Assembly: GCA_964590575.1 (NCBI GenBank)
Contig: CAZPWM010000019.1
Coordinates: 1 to 41,130 of the forward strand
Direction: 5' to 3'
DNA length: 41,130 nt
DNA from: an uncultured archaeon
GTDB lineage: Archaea > Asgardarchaeota > Thorarchaeia > Thorarchaeales > Thorarchaeaceae
Part shown: positions 624-28,631 of the stretch, piece by piece
Numbering within the stretch: the first letter of the stretch is position 1
Layout of the letters: every line of letters begins with the position of its first letter
The notes under the pieces: model-generated
The model's input: the letters and a program-made list of their open reading frames with translations, nothing else
Database searches by the model: none
What the model was told of the DNA's origin: nothing
Program-made: the position numbers and the translations under genes

Positions 624-1019
624 TTAGTGGCAATCTCCACCGCCACCGTGGCTACCGCCGCCACCACAGAGACCATCACTGTCCATTAATTCTCCTACTC
701 CTTTCAGATACGTCTGAATTGCATCACCCACCGTGGCGTTTCCACTTCGTACAACTGTTAATCCTACTTGCTGAGCCACCATGTAAGGTCTCATACCCAT
801 ACCCATAGTGATGAGAACATTTACGCCTAGGCTTACCAGTCGATTTACTGGCTCTGCGCAGCTATTGTGACCATTGTTAGGTACTGCTTCTACACTGACT
901 ATTTTTCCGTCTTCAACTGTAGAAACAATGAATGCTTTGCAATGACCAAAGTGGCCACTCACAGGACTATCAAGTCCGTTGTCCATATCCGCAGTTACAG
1001 CAATTTTTTGTGTGCTCAA
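624..1019 (-). CDS. NifB/NifX (dinitrogenase FeMo-cofactor biosynthesis-like) family protein
   Basis: KIAV...VSGHFGHCKAF and GMG motifs; Gly/His/Cys-rich tail. Confidence 0.88.
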   Translation of the reverse strand: MSTQKIAVTADMDNGLDSPVSGHFGHCKAFIVSTVEDGKIVSVEAVPNNGHNSCAEPVNRLVSLGVNVLITMGMGMRPYMVAQQVGLTVVRSGNATVGDAIQTYLKGVGELMDSDGLCGGGGSHGGGGDCH

Positions 1020-1128: not shown

Positions 1129-2232
1129 ATGTATGACCAAATCTGGTTGGTTCAATTGAAAGCCCCCTGTTATCAATGTGGTGAACCCTCAGTTTTGGAT
1201 GGTCTATGTACCACGTGCTATGAAAAAGATCATCCACTGATTGAGGTTAAAACACCACTTACACTACTGGCCTGCAAAAAATGTGGTTCAGTGAAGATAC
1301 CGGGTGGTTGGAAAAAAATGACAATTTCAGCTGCTGACTCGGATGATCTCTGGCCTCACCAACTGGACATACTCCTCGATACAGAAGTAAAACCTCTTGT
1401 ACGTGGAATCGAAATAACAATCGAGGAGGAGAAGCGATTAGATCGTGTTCTTCATATCATTTTAAAAATCCTAGGAAAATCTCATGAAGACCTCCCTCCA
1501 CATGAGGAACAATACAATGTTGAAGTCCGTTTCTCTTATGGAACATGTGATACCTGCGGCATGAAGAGTGGGGGGTACTACGAGGCAACGCTCCAGATAC
1601 GTGCAGATGGGCGCCAATTGAAAGAGGAGGAAGAGGATGATATTATCCGTACTGTGACTGAAATGACTATTGCACAATATGGATCTGACGATAAGGCATT
1701 CGTGACTAAAATCAGCAGTGACAGGTATGGTATGGATTTTCAAATAGGTTCTGACCATCTCTGTCGCTCCATTGCAGATGTTCTCGAATCCAAATATCTT
1801 GCCGAGCGAAAACAGAACTACAAATTGGTGGGTCAAGATAAGCGTGGCAAGGACAAATTTCGTACAACTATTCTAATCCGCCTTCACAGATTTGGGATAG
1901 GCGATTTTGTAAAAGTTCTTGACAAGCCCTGCCAAGTTATGGCAATGAGTAAAGCCGGTCTCACGTGTTTTGATTTAACTCAGAGGCAGCGATTCACGAT
2001 GAATCCAAAGAGTTCTAAATGGCGTACACTTGAATATCTTGCCTCTAAGAATGACAGACGCAAGTTTATGGTTACGACACGAGTCTATGGTCAACCTGCT
2101 CAATTGATGGATTCAGAAACCTATGAAATTACTGAGCTCGATGAATCACTTCTTGATAATGACGTTGAAGCTGGAAGTACAGTATATGGGTTGACTGTTG
2201 ATGATGTGTTCTATCTTCTCCCATCGGAGTAG
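1129..2232 (+). CDS. nmd3: NMD3 family 60S/50S ribosome maturation protein
   Basis: Four CxxC pairs, GGYYEATLQIR motif, C-terminal SH3/OB-like region; upstream of aIF1A-RIO1. Confidence 0.9.
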   Translation: MYDQIWLVQLKAPCYQCGEPSVLDGLCTTCYEKDHPLIEVKTPLTLLACKKCGSVKIPGGWKKMTISAADSDDLWPHQLDILLDTEVKPLVRGIEITIEEEKRLDRVLHIILKILGKSHEDLPPHEEQYNVEVRFSYGTCDTCGMKSGGYYEATLQIRADGRQLKEEEEDDIIRTVTEMTIAQYGSDDKAFVTKISSDRYGMDFQIGSDHLCRSIADVLESKYLAERKQNYKLVGQDKRGKDKFRTTILIRLHRFGIGDFVKVLDKPCQVMAMSKAGLTCFDLTQRQRFTMNPKSSKWRTLEYLASKNDRRKFMVTTRVYGQPAQLMDSETYEITELDESLLDNDVEAGSTVYGLTVDDVFYLLPSE

Positions 2233-2325: not shown

Positions 2326-2667
2326 TTGTCCCGAAGAAGAGGCAGCGGCGGTAAACGACCGCAGCAAGGCACTGGTCCTGATGAACCACTGAGAGTCAGG
2401 ACTCCAAGACGTGATGATGGAGAGATGTTTGGAATAATCATCCAGATGTTGGGGTTTGATAGAGTTCGAGTTAGATGTGAGGACCAAAACATCAGAATCG
2501 GTAGAATTCCAGGCAGAATGAAGAAGAGAGTCTGGATGCGAATCGGTGATACAGTCCTTATCACACCTTGGGATTTTCAAAGTGATGAGAAGTGTGATGT
2601 TGTCTATAGATACAGAGGCAACGAGCTGGACTGGTTGCAGAATAAAGGTATTCTAAAGATGTTCTGA
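2326..2667 (+). CDS. eif1a: Translation initiation factor 1A
   Basis: RIPGRMKKRVWMRIGDTVLITPWDFQ motif; GGAGG RBS before TTG. Confidence 0.96.
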   Translation: MSRRRGSGGKRPQQGTGPDEPLRVRTPRRDDGEMFGIIIQMLGFDRVRVRCEDQNIRIGRIPGRMKKRVWMRIGDTVLITPWDFQSDEKCDVVYRYRGNELDWLQNKGILKMF

Positions 2668-11906: not shown

Positions 11907-12061
11907 CCGTTCCCCGAAACCTAGACAATCTTGGACATCGAGTCCGAGATGATGTTCGGTTCCTGCTTCATCAAGGCTGCTCTCTGTAGATTTATTGAAT
12001 CTGTTAAGAGTCTTACCTCCTTTCCACAGGCGTTTTCAATCTCCGGCAAACTGATGGCGAC
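11907..12061 (-). ncRNA. TnpB omegaRNA scaffold overlapping the tnpB 3' end; element right end ...GGGGAACGG, guide would begin CTACTACTATTTCTC
   Basis: Expected position for omegaRNA; boundaries defined by similarity to the second copy at 28476-28631. Confidence 0.75.
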
Positions 12062-13150
12062 TAGATTCAGTGCAGCGTTGAGATCCCTATCAATCACTAA
12101 TCCGCACTCTTCACAATGATACTTCCTCTCTGAGAGGGACAACTCCTTCTTTCTGTGCCCACACTGTGAACACATTTTGGAAGATGGAAATGTTCGCGAG
12201 GCAATGACAAGCTCAGAACCATACCACAGGCACTTGTACTCCAGCTGTTTCCTGAACTCGTAGAATCCTACATCAGCTATTACTCTTGCAAGCCTTCGGT
12301 TCTTCATCATTCCTGACACAAGTAAGTCTTCAATCACCACCTTACTGTGGCTCTTGGCAAGGTGGGTTGTCAACTTGTGCAGTGTGTCCTGTCGGATGTT
12401 GAAGACCCTTAGGTACATCTTTGCAAGTCGTAACTTAGCCTTCTCTCGATTCTTGCTCCCCTTCTTCTTTCGTGATAAAGATCTATGTAGCTTTTTCAAT
12501 TTCCTCAGTCGTCTTCCAAGAGCCCGTGGATTTGCATACTGAGTACCATCACTTAGTGTGGCCAAGGTCTTAACTCCCAAATCCACTCCTACGGGCTCTC
12601 CATTTACTGGTTGTGGGTCTAGGATGTTCTCCTCCACAGTGACCGATACGAACCATCGTTCCGCTCTCCTTCTCACTGTGGCAGAGAGTATCCTTCCCCT
12701 ATGGTAGCTCTTCTTCTTCTCCTTGACTCGGATCTTCCCAATCCGTGGAAGCTGGATTGCTCTTCCCTGGAAACGGATGGTCCCAGTCAGTCTGAAGCTG
12801 TCCCTGACTCCCCTTCTCTTGAAGCGAGGGAATCCTATCTTTTGCCCTGTCTTTAATCCACGATGGAAGTTCTGAAAGGCTCTATGGAGGTCTCTCAGGG
12901 CTTCTTGAGGTGCACACTTGGAGGTTTCGTACATCCATGGGAACTGGTGCTTCTTCAGGGAGTTGAGAATCTTATGCTGTTTCATGGCATCAGTGAACCG
13001 TTCGTCGCCCTGATTATTCCTATAACGATTGATCCGTTGTTCGAGACCCCAGTTGTAGGCAAAACGAGCTACTCCTGAATGTTGAGCAAGGTATGACCTC
13101 TGAATGTTGTTGGGATCCAGTTCATACCTGTAGGCTCTTTGGATTAACAT
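11921..13150 (-). CDS. tnpB: RNA-guided endonuclease TnpB (IS607-type, no tnpA partner)
   Basis: N-terminal AYRYELDPN..ARFAYNWGL; RuvC residues in GVDLG, VIEDL and DRDLNAA; CSQC/CEEC zinc finger. Confidence 0.95.
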   Translation of the reverse strand: MLIQRAYRYELDPNNIQRSYLAQHSGVARFAYNWGLEQRINRYRNNQGDERFTDAMKQHKILNSLKKHQFPWMYETSKCAPQEALRDLHRAFQNFHRGLKTGQKIGFPRFKRRGVRDSFRLTGTIRFQGRAIQLPRIGKIRVKEKKKSYHRGRILSATVRRRAERWFVSVTVEENILDPQPVNGEPVGVDLGVKTLATLSDGTQYANPRALGRRLRKLKKLHRSLSRKKKGSKNREKAKLRLAKMYLRVFNIRQDTLHKLTTHLAKSHSKVVIEDLLVSGMMKNRRLARVIADVGFYEFRKQLEYKCLWYGSELVIASRTFPSSKMCSQCGHRKKELSLSERKYHCEECGLVIDRDLNAALNLVAISLPEIENACGKEVRLLTDSINLQRAALMKQEPNIISDSMSKIV

Positions 13151-13199: not shown

Positions 13200-13275
13200 T
13201 GGTAGCCCCGGGAAGATTTGAACTTCCGTCAGCGAGGCCAAAACCCGCTATGCTGGACCGCTACACCACGGGGCT
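13200..13275 (-). tRNA. tRNA-Gln(TTG), intronless, CCA encoded
   Basis: Cloverleaf AGCCCCG...CGGGGCT-A-CCA; anticodon arm GCGGG-TTTTGGC-CTCGC; GTTCAAATC T-loop. Confidence 0.95.
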
Positions 13276-22486: not shown

Positions 22487-22508
22487 TGGTGCGGAGGGCG
22501 AGATTTGA
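22487..22508 (-). repeat. tRNA-Leu 3'-end direct repeat, copy 1 (TCAAATCTCGCCCTCCGCACCA on minus strand)
   Basis: Exact 22-nt match to 24521-24542. Confidence 0.97.
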
Positions 22509-22614
22509 TAAGGATGCAAGATTTAGATTGTGTTAATTGGAGGTCTAAGGAACTATTGCCGAATTCATTCTAGTCTTCGTCCTTTTAGTACTGTCTGCAG
22601 TCGTTGGAGTCTTT

Positions 22615-22902
22615 TTGGTAGATGCTCAAATGACAAAACCTTCTATCGAACAAAGTCAAAGAATCTTTTGGCAATCTCTGATTATCTTTTTCTTTGGGCT
22701 AATGGTATCTGTTACATGGTATTTACTCTGGATGAGTACTGCATTGAGTTTATCTGATTCTCTTGTTTTTTCTGGATGTACATTATTAGAGGCTATACTA
22801 ACCATTTTGATTGGATTAAGGCACTTGAGGAAATATAGAGAGTACGTTCGAGTGAATCTTGAGATTGAAGAAGGGCTATCTGATATAGTATCAGCTGAAT
22901 GA
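22615..22902 (+). CDS. Hypothetical 2-TM membrane protein (cassette cargo)
   Basis: Two hydrophobic segments; stop codon lies just before repeat copy 2. Confidence 0.6.
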   Translation: MVDAQMTKPSIEQSQRIFWQSLIIFFFGLMVSVTWYLLWMSTALSLSDSLVFSGCTLLEAILTILIGLRHLRKYREYVRVNLEIEEGLSDIVSAE

Positions 22903-22908
22903 GGAAGA

Positions 22909-22930
22909 TGGTGCGGAGGGCGAGATTTGA
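22909..22930 (-). repeat. tRNA-Leu 3'-end direct repeat, copy 2
   Basis: Exact 22-nt match. Confidence 0.97.
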
Positions 22931-22959
22931 TATGGGCGTTAAACGTCAGTTATCATTTG

Positions 22960-23415
22960 ATGACAGATCACAACTATTCTAACATCTGCAAAGAATGTGG
23001 TGGATACTGTTGCGCACAAGGAGGTTCTATTGCGACTAAGTTGGAAGTAGACCGGATAATTAAGGCTGGATATCAGAATAAGTTCATTGAAATTACGGAG
23101 AACTGCTATATTACAGATTTTGGAGAGGACCTGATATGTCCTTATCTCAAGGAATCCACCTGTAAAATCTATCCTGTACGCCCCTTGCTTTGTAAGAAAT
23201 ATCCTATTTTCTCAACAGATGGTGAAGAACATTATTTGATTCATTGTCCCTTGACTCAATACCTTTCAAAGGATGATCTAGCTCAATGTATTGAAGCTGC
23301 ATTAGAAGTCCCTGAAGAACTATTTACATGTGCCCAGAGATTTATGGCTCCTTTTGGCTCAAGAATTGATGAACGAATGCGCAAATTCAAAATGGAACGA
23401 ATTGAACTGAAGTAA
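22960..23415 (+). CDS. YkgJ family cysteine-cluster (Zn/Fe-S) protein (cassette cargo)
   Basis: CKECGGYCC...CPYL....CKIYPVRPLLCKKYP; ATG 22960 preferred because TTG 22927 lies inside the repeat. Confidence 0.88.
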   Translation: MTDHNYSNICKECGGYCCAQGGSIATKLEVDRIIKAGYQNKFIEITENCYITDFGEDLICPYLKESTCKIYPVRPLLCKKYPIFSTDGEEHYLIHCPLTQYLSKDDLAQCIEAALEVPEELFTCAQRFMAPFGSRIDERMRKFKMERIELK

Positions 23416-23418
23416 GAA

Positions 23419-23440
23419 TGGTGCGGAGGGCGAGATTTGA
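23419..23440 (-). repeat. tRNA-Leu 3'-end direct repeat, copy 3
   Basis: Exact 22-nt match. Confidence 0.97.
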
Positions 23441-23455
23441 TTCTCGTAATTTTAG

Positions 23456-23815
23456 CTAAAGCACATCAGATTCCCTTTTTCTCATCTTCCTACCTACAAA
23501 GACCAACCATGTAATGTAAGGAATCCAAAGTGTCATGCCTATGGTCAGGATTCCAATAACCGGTCCTATTAGGACAACTGAGTAAATATCTAGGAACGAA
23601 TACCACAACCATATCGTTAACACAATAATGGGTAGTAAACCATTTCGATACGTCTTCCAATGAAGCGCACCATGACATCTGTGTGAACAAGTTTCTCTAT
23701 TTTGTAGCCAAGAAACTTCAGCTTTTCCACACCACTTACACACACCCTCTGTTGCACTTTTTGAATCTCCATACTGACCATACCTCGGATATCTTCTATC
23801 TTCCTCCGATTCCAT
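23456..23815 (-). CDS. Hypothetical membrane protein with CxxC...CxxxC zinc-ribbon motif (cassette cargo)
   Basis: CKWCG...TCSHRC followed by two TM helices. Confidence 0.7.
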   Translation of the reverse strand: MESEEDRRYPRYGQYGDSKSATEGVCKWCGKAEVSWLQNRETCSHRCHGALHWKTYRNGLLPIIVLTIWLWYSFLDIYSVVLIGPVIGILTIGMTLWIPYITWLVFVGRKMRKRESDVL

Positions 23816-23893
23816 ATGTATGCGTTCCCCTAAACTAACGAGTCACAGAGAGCATCTGAATTATGTTACATATCAATCTAGTTGTAAAAGAAG

Positions 23894-23916
23894 TGGTGCG
23901 GAGGGCGAGATTTGAA
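23894..23916 (-). repeat. tRNA-Leu 3'-end direct repeat, copy 4 (23 nt, the full 3' exon)
   Basis: Exact match to 24521-24543. Confidence 0.97.
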
Positions 23917-23942
23917 GGGATAGTTTCAGGAAAGTTACTATT

Positions 23943-24446
23943 CTATCCGCAGTTTTGTACTGTAATATTGTAAATGAAACGAACCCTCAGATTCAACGGA
24001 AGGTCACCAATCTTGACAATGTCATGTGGATATGTTATTACAGCTGCAACCACACAGTCCTCTCCAGGATGTATTTCATCGACATAGACTGTGTAGTATG
24101 TAAGAGTCATAGTTATCCTTGTGATATTTGTTAAATATCCGCTTGAACCACATATGCCTTGAAACACTACAATGAGTAGTTCTGACGAGAAGTCTACATC
24201 TGGAACCTCGGGGATTTGGGTGTGTCCGCTATACGAATCTAGCCACAAAGTTTCCCATGTCAGTGAATCTCTAATGGCAAAGTTATCCCGGGCATAACCA
24301 CGGCCACCAAGGTGACCAATTCTCTCAAAGGGCACCTCAATACTCGGAAGAATTCCTAGATCAGGTTCTACAAATATGAAGAACGAGGCCGCTAAGACAA
24401 TACAGATTGTAGTACCTGTTAGAAGTTTAACTGGAACTTTTTTCAT
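23943..24446 (-). CDS. Membrane-anchored protein with PrcB C-terminal-like domain (cassette cargo)
   Basis: N-terminal TM; PDVDFSSELLIVVFQG..GSSGY...ITYPHDIVKI pattern; ATG 24446 with AGGTGG RBS. Confidence 0.75.
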   Translation of the reverse strand: MKKVPVKLLTGTTICIVLAASFFIFVEPDLGILPSIEVPFERIGHLGGRGYARDNFAIRDSLTWETLWLDSYSGHTQIPEVPDVDFSSELLIVVFQGICGSSGYLTNITRITMTLTYYTVYVDEIHPGEDCVVAAVITYPHDIVKIGDLPLNLRVRFIYNITVQNCG

Positions 24447-24520
24447 GAACACTGCCCCACCTTTGACGATCCATATAACTCCTGGAAACATATAGACCTA
24501 GTGAACAGGTAAGAAAGAGA

Positions 24521-24638
24521 TGGTGCGGAGGGCGAGATTTGAATTGTCGCTCCGAGTCGTAGTGGCTCGGAGTCTCGCGAACTCCTACGAGACTAGGCCC
24601 TCAACCTAGCGCCTTTAACCTGGCTGGGCAACCTCCGC
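24521..24638 (-). tRNA. tRNA-Leu(GAG) with 30-nt intron at position 53/54 (24544-24573), CCA encoded
   Basis: Anticodon arm CTAGG-TTGAGGG-CCTAG and long variable arm; removing the insert restores the GCGAG-TTCAAAT-CTCGC T-arm (88 nt mature). Confidence 0.92.
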
Positions 24639-24773
24639 AAATGTAAGAGTTCATCTCAAGAGGGTAATTCACAGTTCGTTTTGAAATCGGTGATAAGGAT
24701 TTCGCCTTGGATATTTTAGGATGTCTTATCTAGAATCAGACATAAGACAATACTAAGTTGGAAGAATCAAAAT

Positions 24774-24868
24774 CTCGCGAACTCCTACGAGAATGCCTCT
24801 TCGTGGCGAAATACCACGAAGTCTAGGCCCTCAACCTAGCGCCTTTAACCTGGCTGGGCAACCTCCGC
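24774..24868 (-). pseudogene. 5' part (nt 1-53) of a second tRNA-Leu(GAG), carrying a different 30-nt BHB intron at 43/44 (24793-24822)
   Basis: Exon sequence identical to 24574-24638 and ends exactly at the 53/54 junction; GCCT/AGGC central helix with AGA and ATT bulges. Confidence 0.88.
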
Positions 24869-25262
24869 ATATGAATGGATAAAGGCCAACACTCCGTATT
24901 CCAGGAAAGCGCTTCCGGAGCATTGTGTTATGGAGTTCATCGATTTCCGTAGAAGTTTGAATGATAAGGATTTCTGTTGCAAGAGATGTACCGTGCTGAA
25001 AAGAAGAGGGTTTATTCGGAACAGACGGAGTCACATCAAAGTGACAGACCAATCTGCTCTCATGTTTTGAACTACTCAATTATCTTGTAGTTCCAGCCAG
25101 CCACTCGAAAAGATTTGGCTGTGTTGCCCTATTTTGGGGCTTTGATTTATTGTCATTTTTCATTTATTTTCACCTATTAACTATAGATTATATTTCGATT
25201 TGCTTTATAACTATGGGAACCTGCACAAATTTTAGAGCACTTTCAAGACTAAAATTGAGAGA

Positions 25263-25370
25263 TGGAGCCCCGGGCGAGATTTGAATTCGCGCCTCACAGT
25301 GCAGATGTCCATGAGGTCTCGCGACGTTCTGCTTACGAAGCAGACGCTATAACCCCTAAGCCACCGAGGC
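25263..25370 (-). tRNA. tRNA-Thr(CGT) with 32-nt intron at 53/54 (25286-25317), CCA encoded
   Basis: Anticodon arm TCTGC-TTCGTAA-GCAGA; BHB core CGCG/CGCG with AGA and AAT bulges; 76 nt mature. Confidence 0.92.
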
Positions 25371-25450
25371 TCGTCTCATCGCTCACCCATTTAATTCTCT
25401 AATAAAACTTTATCATGGAACCCACATGCTAAAACATTGGAGGTCTTTCA

Positions 25451-28197: not shown

Positions 28198-28306
28198 TGG
28201 CGGGCCCGGTGAGATTCGAACTCACGAACTCCAACTTAGAAGGCTGGCGCCCTATGAACCTCACAATACACGAATTGTGCATAGTACCGGGCTAGGCAAC
28301 GGGCCC
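28198..28306 (-). tRNA. tRNA-Arg(TCT) with about 30-nt D-loop intron (approx. 28256-28285), CCA encoded
   Basis: GGGCCCG/CGGGCCC acceptor stem; CCAGC-CTTCTAA-GTTGG anticodon arm; hairpin insert CACAAT..ATTGTG in the D-loop; exact splice sites uncertain. Confidence 0.88.
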
Positions 28307-28455: not shown

Positions 28456-28631
28456 AGGAGTCAAATCTTGCATTCCCGTTTCCCGAAACCTAGACAATCC
28501 TGGATAATGCAATCCTTGATTGATATTCGGTTTCTGCTTCTCAGAGGCTTGCTCTGAATAAATCCTGATGATTTCCAAAGTCTTACATCCTCTCCACAGA
28601 CAGTTAGAGTCTCCGGCAAACTGACGGTGAC
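28456..28631 (-). ncRNA. Stand-alone TnpB omegaRNA (scaffold 28476-28631 plus guide GAATGCAAGATTTGACTCCT...)
   Basis: Colinear similarity to 11907-12061 over about 155 nt, with no tnpB coding sequence upstream. Confidence 0.8.

Follow-up and report, generated by a model that had tools for sequence, protein, structure and literature searches.

One-gene cassettes separated by copies of a tRNA 3′ end, and an orphan tRNA 5′ part, at a tRNA-Leu gene of a Thorarchaeial genome

INTRODUCTION

Genomic islands that target tRNA genes are the closest described counterparts of the locus reported here. The Islander work (PMC4383910) recognises the anticodon loop, the T-loop and the T/acceptor junction as sub-sites at which islands cross over in tRNA genes, and counts only four arrays of at least three islands, each with its own integrase. 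Nearest to our case in the literature searched are thaumarchaeal integrated elements whose att sites are short (PMC6563490), tycheposon islands in which partial tRNAs are scattered (a preprint) and Asgard elements at tRNA genes (PMC8813620). Integrons have also been reported in archaeal genomes (preprint 10.1101/2022.02.06.479319).

The locus described here resembles tyrosine-integrase islands of the Islander or tycheposon type in that an intact tRNA gene is accompanied by displaced 3′ fragments in direct orientation. A boundary at the T-loop sub-site, a cargo that varies between relatives and the occurrence of newest and oldest copies side by side are likewise shared with Islander-type islands. 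In contrast to these, neither the cassettes nor the genome yielded an integrase, and the units are small (about 0.3-1.5 kb, with one ORF), whereas islands span many kilobases. The literature that we searched held no description of such integrase-less one-gene tRNA arrays.

A second thread concerns introns within tRNA genes. Reportedly, Randau and Soll proposed that tRNA introns protect attachment sites from mobile elements. PMC4033280 and PMC3293823 cite this protection hypothesis.

Here, we analysed a window of 41,130 nucleotides, positions 1 to 41,130 of contig CAZPWM010000019.1 (assembly GCA_964590575.1) of an uncultured archaeon of the Thorarchaeaceae. The genome (G000) comprises 3.4 Mb in 194 contigs and is 91% complete, and the sequencing runs that hold this DNA are salt-marsh metagenomes. 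Forty loci from the same genus were fetched as the comparison set.

RESULTS

Copies of the tRNA-Leu 3′ exon separate single-gene cassettes

A tRNA-Leu(GAG) gene with a 30-nt intron between nt 53 and 54 lies on the minus strand at 24638-24521 (Table 1). Its structure was read by hand; neither ARAGORN nor Rfam at the gathering score called a tRNA-Leu(GAG) at these positions. Downstream of the gene, the window holds four extra copies of its 23-nt 3′ exon, including the CCA. Five copies were thus observed where the number expected in shuffled sequence is 0.00, and no degenerate copy of the exon was found elsewhere in the window. The initial annotation had identified the repeats as the 3′ exon of the intron-bearing gene, which our comparison bears out at 23 of 23 bases in one copy and 22 of 23 in three, the sole mismatch of the copies at 23419, 22909 and 22487 being tRNA nt 54. 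It had also placed all breakpoints at the 53/54 splice site. This is correct for one of the four downstream repeats, while the other three break at 54/55, with an A instead of T54.

Table 1. Features of the tRNA-Leu(GAG) locus in window coordinates
Feature	Position	Strand	Remarks
Most distal repeat copy	22487..22509	-	22/23 bases, A at nt 54; followed by a pyrimidine tract
Cassette a	22510..22908	+	Single ORF 22615-22902, 95 aa, no Pfam family
Repeat copy	22909..22931	-	22/23 bases; start of the next ORF abuts it
Cassette b	22932..23418	+	CxxCxxCC-domain ORF (listed 22927-23415, 162 aa)
Repeat copy	23419..23441	-	22/23 bases
Cassette c	23442..23893	-	Single ORF 23456-23815, 119 aa, no Pfam family
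Repeat copy	23894..23916	-	23/23 bases
Cassette d	23917..24520	-	PrcB_C-domain ORF 23943-24491, 182 aa
3′ exon of the active tRNA-Leu(GAG)	24521..24543	-	nt 54-76 with encoded CCA; putative attachment segment
Intron	24544..24573	-	30 nt at 53/54; hairpin conserved in 4 other species, with compensatory changes
5′ exon of the active gene	24574..24638	-	A-type allele, 65 nt
A-type leader/promoter region	24639..24703	-	Ends in a 13-nt motif (24691-24703) that recurs at 24962-24974
Spacer	24704..24773	-	About 70 nt between orphan and A-type module
Orphan 5′ part (nt 1-53)	24774..24868	-	B-type tRNA-Leu(GAG) allele; own 30-nt insert 24793-24822
B-type leader/promoter region	24869..24974	-	With 13-nt motif; colinear with B-type loci of relatives
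tRNA-Thr(CGU)	25263..25371	-	T-arm same as tRNA-Leu; 32-nt intron at 53/54; no array

The window's four intervals measure 422-627 bp and hold one ORF apiece. For cassette a, no DNA relative was found in the 27 other genomes of the genus, and for cassette c none within the genus. Cassette b recurs in the tRNA-Leu(GAG) arrays of 13 further genus genomes, and cassette d has DNA relatives at 66-77% in six genomes; one of these relatives lies in another tRNA-Leu array, whose fragments have a different boundary. Since cassette content differs among species, it turns over, and turnover is not restricted to the position adjacent to the tRNA. The CxxCxxCC ORF has its start codon 2 nt from a repeat (22909-22934), and a GGAGG is present on the reverse strand of that repeat about 13 nt upstream of the start. 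Several other cassettes share this layout of ORF and repeat, and 53 of the 77 cassette ORFs face that way.

Are such arrays a common feature of the genus? The 22-nt segment was found in all of the other genus genomes (27 of 27), often clustered, and at least two copies of it occur in 38 of 80 metagenome loci. Exactly one ORF of at least 60 aa is present in 58 of the 68 inter-repeat intervals of the genus; the median interval is 628 bp long, and the single ORF fills a median of 82% of it. The ORFs run against the tRNA in 53 cases and with it in 24. Their cargo includes GNAT acetyltransferases, a thioesterase, a cupin, hydrolases, an SSB and an OLD-type ATPase with AbiV, and many of them belong to no Pfam family. 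Per-position base counts gave about 90% pyrimidine at positions +1 to +9 after the copies, in a sequence that varies from copy to copy.

Further arrays, built from 3′ fragments of other tRNAs, are present in this genome on contigs C6 (25916-30279), C10 (19792-24790) and C22 (27524-30558). With the array on C4 (7541-8438) included, the fragments are spaced 335-3900 bp apart. On C10, the strand of the copies bears no anchor tRNA, and an Rfam search at E values up to 1 found none for the C6, C10 and C22 arrays.

An orphan 5′ part and two allele types

Upstream of the active gene stands a second copy of the 5′ exon (24868-24774). As the initial annotation had reported, this copy stops at G53 and is followed by an A, like the start of the intron. 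[quoted passage not shown]

Two allele types occur at this locus in the genus, and each stands alone in other species. In the B-type, the leader is long and an insert follows the anticodon stem; in the A-type, the leader is short, this insert is missing, and half of the alleles have the 53/54 intron. A shared 13-nt motif, present twice in the window, precedes both types. The window is colinear with B-type loci as far as nt 53; its colinearity with A-type loci sets in at the second motif. The orphan would therefore be the displaced front of a B-type gene and, as far as sequence comparison can tell, is the relic of an allele replacement. In one B-type locus (L039, G008:C261), the anticodon-stem insert exceeds the others in length by about 65 nt, as though it enclosed a second insert.

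The colinearity with an allele type that stands alone elsewhere speaks for the earlier proposal that 24544-24773 represents an inserted module of promoter, 5′ exon and intron. In terms of junctions, the structure can be read as a 230-bp insertion at 53/54, as a 200-bp insertion with a flanking 20-nt direct repeat of the exon end plus A, or as a 271-bp insertion at the 13-nt motif. The spacer of about 70 nt (24704..24773) has no relative in the genus or the metagenome loci; its 10-nt likeness to the intron start of another allele was too short to count.

A second orphan (in G004) consists of an inverted A-type front, whose end is no more than 1 nt away from where its neighbour may carry an intron. 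A third, located on contig C174 of G000, is a 5′ fragment of a second tRNA-Leu(UAG) allele at 690-731 (+), which breaks off in the anticodon loop and has an intron-less gene beside it. This contig of 3.6 kb also holds a degenerate 3′ fragment at about 1690-1730 (-) and a complete intron-less tRNA-Leu(UAG) at 2526-2610 (-).

Could the orphan function at the RNA level, either as an alternative 5′ exon through a 230-nt intron, or with orphan and repeats joined in trans? The 65 of 65 identical exon letters, an intact intron hairpin, a promoter region that has been kept and the same A after nt 53 would all suit this route, as would a long-transcript fold in which the 5′ end of the orphan pairs with the shared 3′ end, although a single minimum-energy fold is weak evidence. 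However, the same tRNA has a complete gene, the repeats also occur behind intron-less genes, and the trailer of the orphan is not complementary to the leaders of six repeat copies (z -1.25 to +0.76). We therefore regard an RNA route as highly improbable, and trans-splicing of the orphan or the repeats finds no support.

An error of assembly or binning that merged the alleles of two strains into one contig would be a more trivial source of the orphan. The locus is indeed heterogeneous in populations, since four allele copies lie on small contigs of one genus genome, and an intact B-type allele at about 90% identity was found in another run. Nonetheless, two other runs yielded contigs that read from the active gene through the spacer into the orphan with 0 differences (X3, 24610-24838; X5, 24610-24848). 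Three of the repeat junctions are also bridged by contigs of other runs, while for 23419-23441, between cassettes b and c, there is no bridge of at least 31 letters among the records listed. As gene, orphan and repeat junctions are bridged in this way, the structure is not an assembly artefact in our view, and the chance that it is one can be considered negligible.

The genome with four alleles (G020) carries tRNA-Leu(GAG) genes of the A- and B-type, with and without a 57/58 intron, on contigs C176, C187, C210 and C307 of one bin; the locus seems to differ between co-occurring strains. Upstream of the orphan, a contig from an RNA library (X20) matches exactly, and only, the intergenic stretch 24914-25162, which is 70-83% conserved in the genus with no reading frame kept; no RNA reads were found over the tRNA-Leu gene itself. 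This stretch may be a non-coding RNA or a long leader, or the match may reflect DNA carry-over. Two small ORFs in this region, 24930-25070 (+) and 24831-25079 (-), were discarded, as the DNA is kept in relatives and the frame is not.

The 53/54 insert as an intron

A related insert is found at the same position in four other species and in five metagenome alleles, and its hairpin covaries, with four compensated pairs in five sequences. A-type orthologs without the intron exist as well (L015, L020 and L032), and the exons without the insert give a normal tRNA. Apart from the gene at 24638-24521, this genome contains no complete tRNA-Leu(GAG) gene; it also encodes two splicing-endonuclease paralogs (tRNA_int_endo, EndA). 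We take these to form a heterotetrameric, two-subunit enzyme of broad specificity. Based on the intron-less orthologs, the conserved and covarying hairpin, the lack of another complete gene and the EndA paralogs, the 30-nt insert is most probably a real intron. Its minimum-energy fold stacks the T-stem on the intron hairpin and leaves the 3′ site unpaired; a canonical bulge-helix-bulge is absent. The ends of the 32-nt insert in tRNA-Thr(CGU) resemble those of the tRNA-Leu intron, which hints at a spread of the intron between tRNAs that share a T-arm.

Does the intron set the boundary of the repeats?

Among the non-anchor fragments, 48 of 75 start at nt 54 (22 fragments) or nt 55 (26 fragments), and the remainder fall into smaller classes further 5′. 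A complete tRNA-Leu gene heads 27 arrays, and in four of these it has the 53/54 intron. In 18 of the 23 tRNA-Leu arrays without this intron, the fragments nevertheless start at nt 54 or 55; three of these 18 arrays are headed by genes with a 57/58 intron, and others by genes without any intron. Within this genome, the copy on C4, behind a tRNA-Leu(CAG) whose intron lies elsewhere, also starts at nt 54. Conversely, tRNA-Thr(CGU) (25371-25263) has an intron at 53/54, yet nowhere in the genome was a further copy of its 3′ end found. The 18 of 23 arrays and the array-less tRNA-Thr indicate together that the boundary belongs to a T-loop attachment site and not to the splice site.

These results weigh on the proposal of the initial annotation that the intron defines, marks or protects the insertion point, as do the two cassettes of the window that are unique in the genus and are nevertheless carried by an intron-bearing gene. 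Arrays are also not confined to tRNAs with 53/54 introns, since relatives show the same boundary at intron-less genes, an outcome that the initial annotation had itself put down as speaking against its proposal. Thus, we drop the notion of an insertion point defined by the intron; an ordinary T-loop attachment site accounts for most of the link to the splice site. The view of the repeats as products of a DNA crossover at the T-arm, offered in the same annotation, fares well in this comparison.

In its stronger form, the idea of Randau and Soll holds that an intron at 53/54 or 57/58 separates or splits the attachment site and thereby blocks the insertion of elements. Introns at both positions do fall at or within the 22-nt site, and the hypothesis is already in print. 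Yet four of the five anchors with a 53/54 intron and all three complete genes with a 57/58 intron head arrays; two cassettes of the window array are unique in the genus, whereas the intron is common to four other species; and copies of the repeat appear to act as sites whatever sequence lies on their left. We consider such protection improbable at this locus.

Search for a recombining enzyme and for intermediates

No match to the tyrosine recombinase family was found in this 91%-complete genome, and an XerA-type dimer resolvase is accordingly not detectable. No SSV-type integrase, reverse transcriptase or Cas1 was found in the genome either; one serine recombinase is encoded on another contig. 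In the genus, a tyrosine recombinase is present in only 8 of 28 genomes, and none of 12 integrase loci carries the site. None of the four window cassettes encodes an integrase, none of the 75 genus cassette ORFs matches a recombinase family, and none of the 135 larger ORFs near the site in the 80 metagenome loci is an integrase. The 22-nt pattern has no match on viral contigs; a single exact match of the 18-nt core on a viral contig was dismissed as a random match within a coding sequence.

At the repeats, neither an excised nor an empty form was seen in contigs of other sequencing runs. Three joints listed there had short sides (24-31 letters), did not fall cleanly at the repeats and were taken as other tRNA genes or organisms. 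The fragment on C4 has A57, whereas its tRNA-Leu(CAG) anchor has G57, so the distal copy arrived with its cassette, and the crossover lay 3′ of nt 57. No site copy is present directly after nt 53 of the orphan, though conservative site-specific recombination should leave one there. The orphan junction would thus need an extra event or a crossover within the last exon bases.

Elsewhere in the window, a TnpB/OrfB_IS605 gene (11921-13150, -) adjoins a tRNA-Gln (13200-13275, -). Its 3′ flank (11907-12061) is repeated at 28476-28631 with 71-93% identity, near a weak 61-nt tRNA match (28201-28261, -); the second stretch may be a decayed copy of the TnpB element.

DISCUSSION

Based on the anatomy of the repeats and the recurrence of their boundary in relatives, we think it probable that the repeats are attachment-site copies left by the repeated insertion of integrase-less cassettes, with the break at the T-loop boundary and the orphan as a displaced B-type front. 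The 22-23-nt repeats would be copies of the tRNA-Leu segment from the T-loop to the CCA, and the small, mostly one-gene cassettes would have been inserted repeatedly and site-specifically behind the tRNA gene. [quoted passage not shown] The pyrimidine tract after every copy resembles a terminator and is expected if each copy, now pushed downstream, once formed the end of a functioning tRNA gene, terminator included. The break at nt 54/55 would be the usual T-loop crossover of tRNA-targeting elements, the same with or without an intron in the anchor. We infer that the recombination was site-specific; the enzyme presumably acts in trans, from transient elements. The 30-nt insert at 53/54 would be a genuine intron of allele type A. 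For the orphan, we suppose a sequence in which the B-type front was displaced as an A-type module of promoter, 5′ exon and intron recombined at the T-arm junction.

Compatible with this repeated insertion, recombination at the T-arm could itself install introns and 5′ modules, so that intron positions follow attachment boundaries. The 53/54 intron, like others, would then be the seam of a promoter and 5′ exon module, or would have been imported with it. The orphan of the window ends at nt 53, the intron position of its neighbour, and the independent orphan of G004 ends at most 1 nt from the possible intron positions of its own neighbour. Downstream fragments in G015 and G017 retain the 3′ part of a 53/54 intron, and boundary classes of fragments also occur at other intron positions seen in tRNA-Leu genes. 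Caldiarchaeum offers a precedent in which a displaced 5′ fragment coincides with intron gain (PMC3293823). On the other hand, only two orphans conform, as the third (C174) ends in the anticodon loop beside an intron-less neighbour; the commonest boundary, 54/55, is 1 nt off the intron; tRNA-Thr has an intron of the same family and no array; and the shared overlap expected of a tyrosine recombinase is seen at no junction. Exchange of modules at the T-arm may bring or create introns in these few cases, and we hold this to be possible, with considerable doubt.

The repeated insertion of cassettes behind the tRNA gene, our preferred reading, leaves arrays that are integron-like and integrase-less, given the one-ORF intervals and the lack of an integrase in cassettes and genome. 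We speculate, very tentatively, that Thorarchaeia practise an integron-like shuffling at the 22-nt site from the T-loop to the CCA, driven by an enzyme other than a recognisable integrase, which would also move 5′ modules and leave the introns at 53/54 and 57/58 as seams; this further step is rather unlikely. If the arrays are what we take them for, archaea of the Thor lineage of Asgard gain and lose single genes at tRNA hot spots without a resident integrase, which would be a route of gene flow new for the closest prokaryotic relatives of eukaryotes.

In summary, the array is a real and well-supported structure, and its unusual features are the integrase-less one-gene cassettes and the swapped tRNA fronts. 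Integrons, with IntI, attI and attC, likewise have compact single-ORF cassettes divided by a short separating site, and their sets differ between relatives. In contrast to integrons, the separator here is a 22-nt tRNA segment in direct repeat, and not a folded attC of imperfect inverted repeats; no IntI-type integrase adjoins the array; the ORFs are of mixed direction (53 against and 24 with the tRNA, as given above); and the array is anchored on a functional tRNA gene. In the split, trans-spliced tRNAs of Nanoarchaeum, Caldivirga and Desulfurococcales (PMC3218864), a 5′ part also stands apart from the 3′ part; unlike there, a complete gene exists here, and the halves have no complementary flanks.

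Closest to the orphan is the tRNA-Thr(GGU) of Caldiarchaeum subterraneum (Sugahara et al. 2012, PMC3293823), where a 5′ fragment with its own upstream region likewise precedes a complete gene, an extra intron lies near the end of the fragment and alleles vary in the population. The copies are 1.8 kb apart in Caldiarchaeum, with a recombinase gene in between, and 135 bp apart here (24639-24773), with no ORF; the junction falls in the D/anticodon region there and in the T-arm here, where the host is an Asgard archaeon. The locus is thus the second natural case, after Caldiarchaeum, of a displaced tRNA half and an intron at one recombination junction, and with it the origin of non-canonical tRNA introns and split tRNAs becomes testable by population sequencing.
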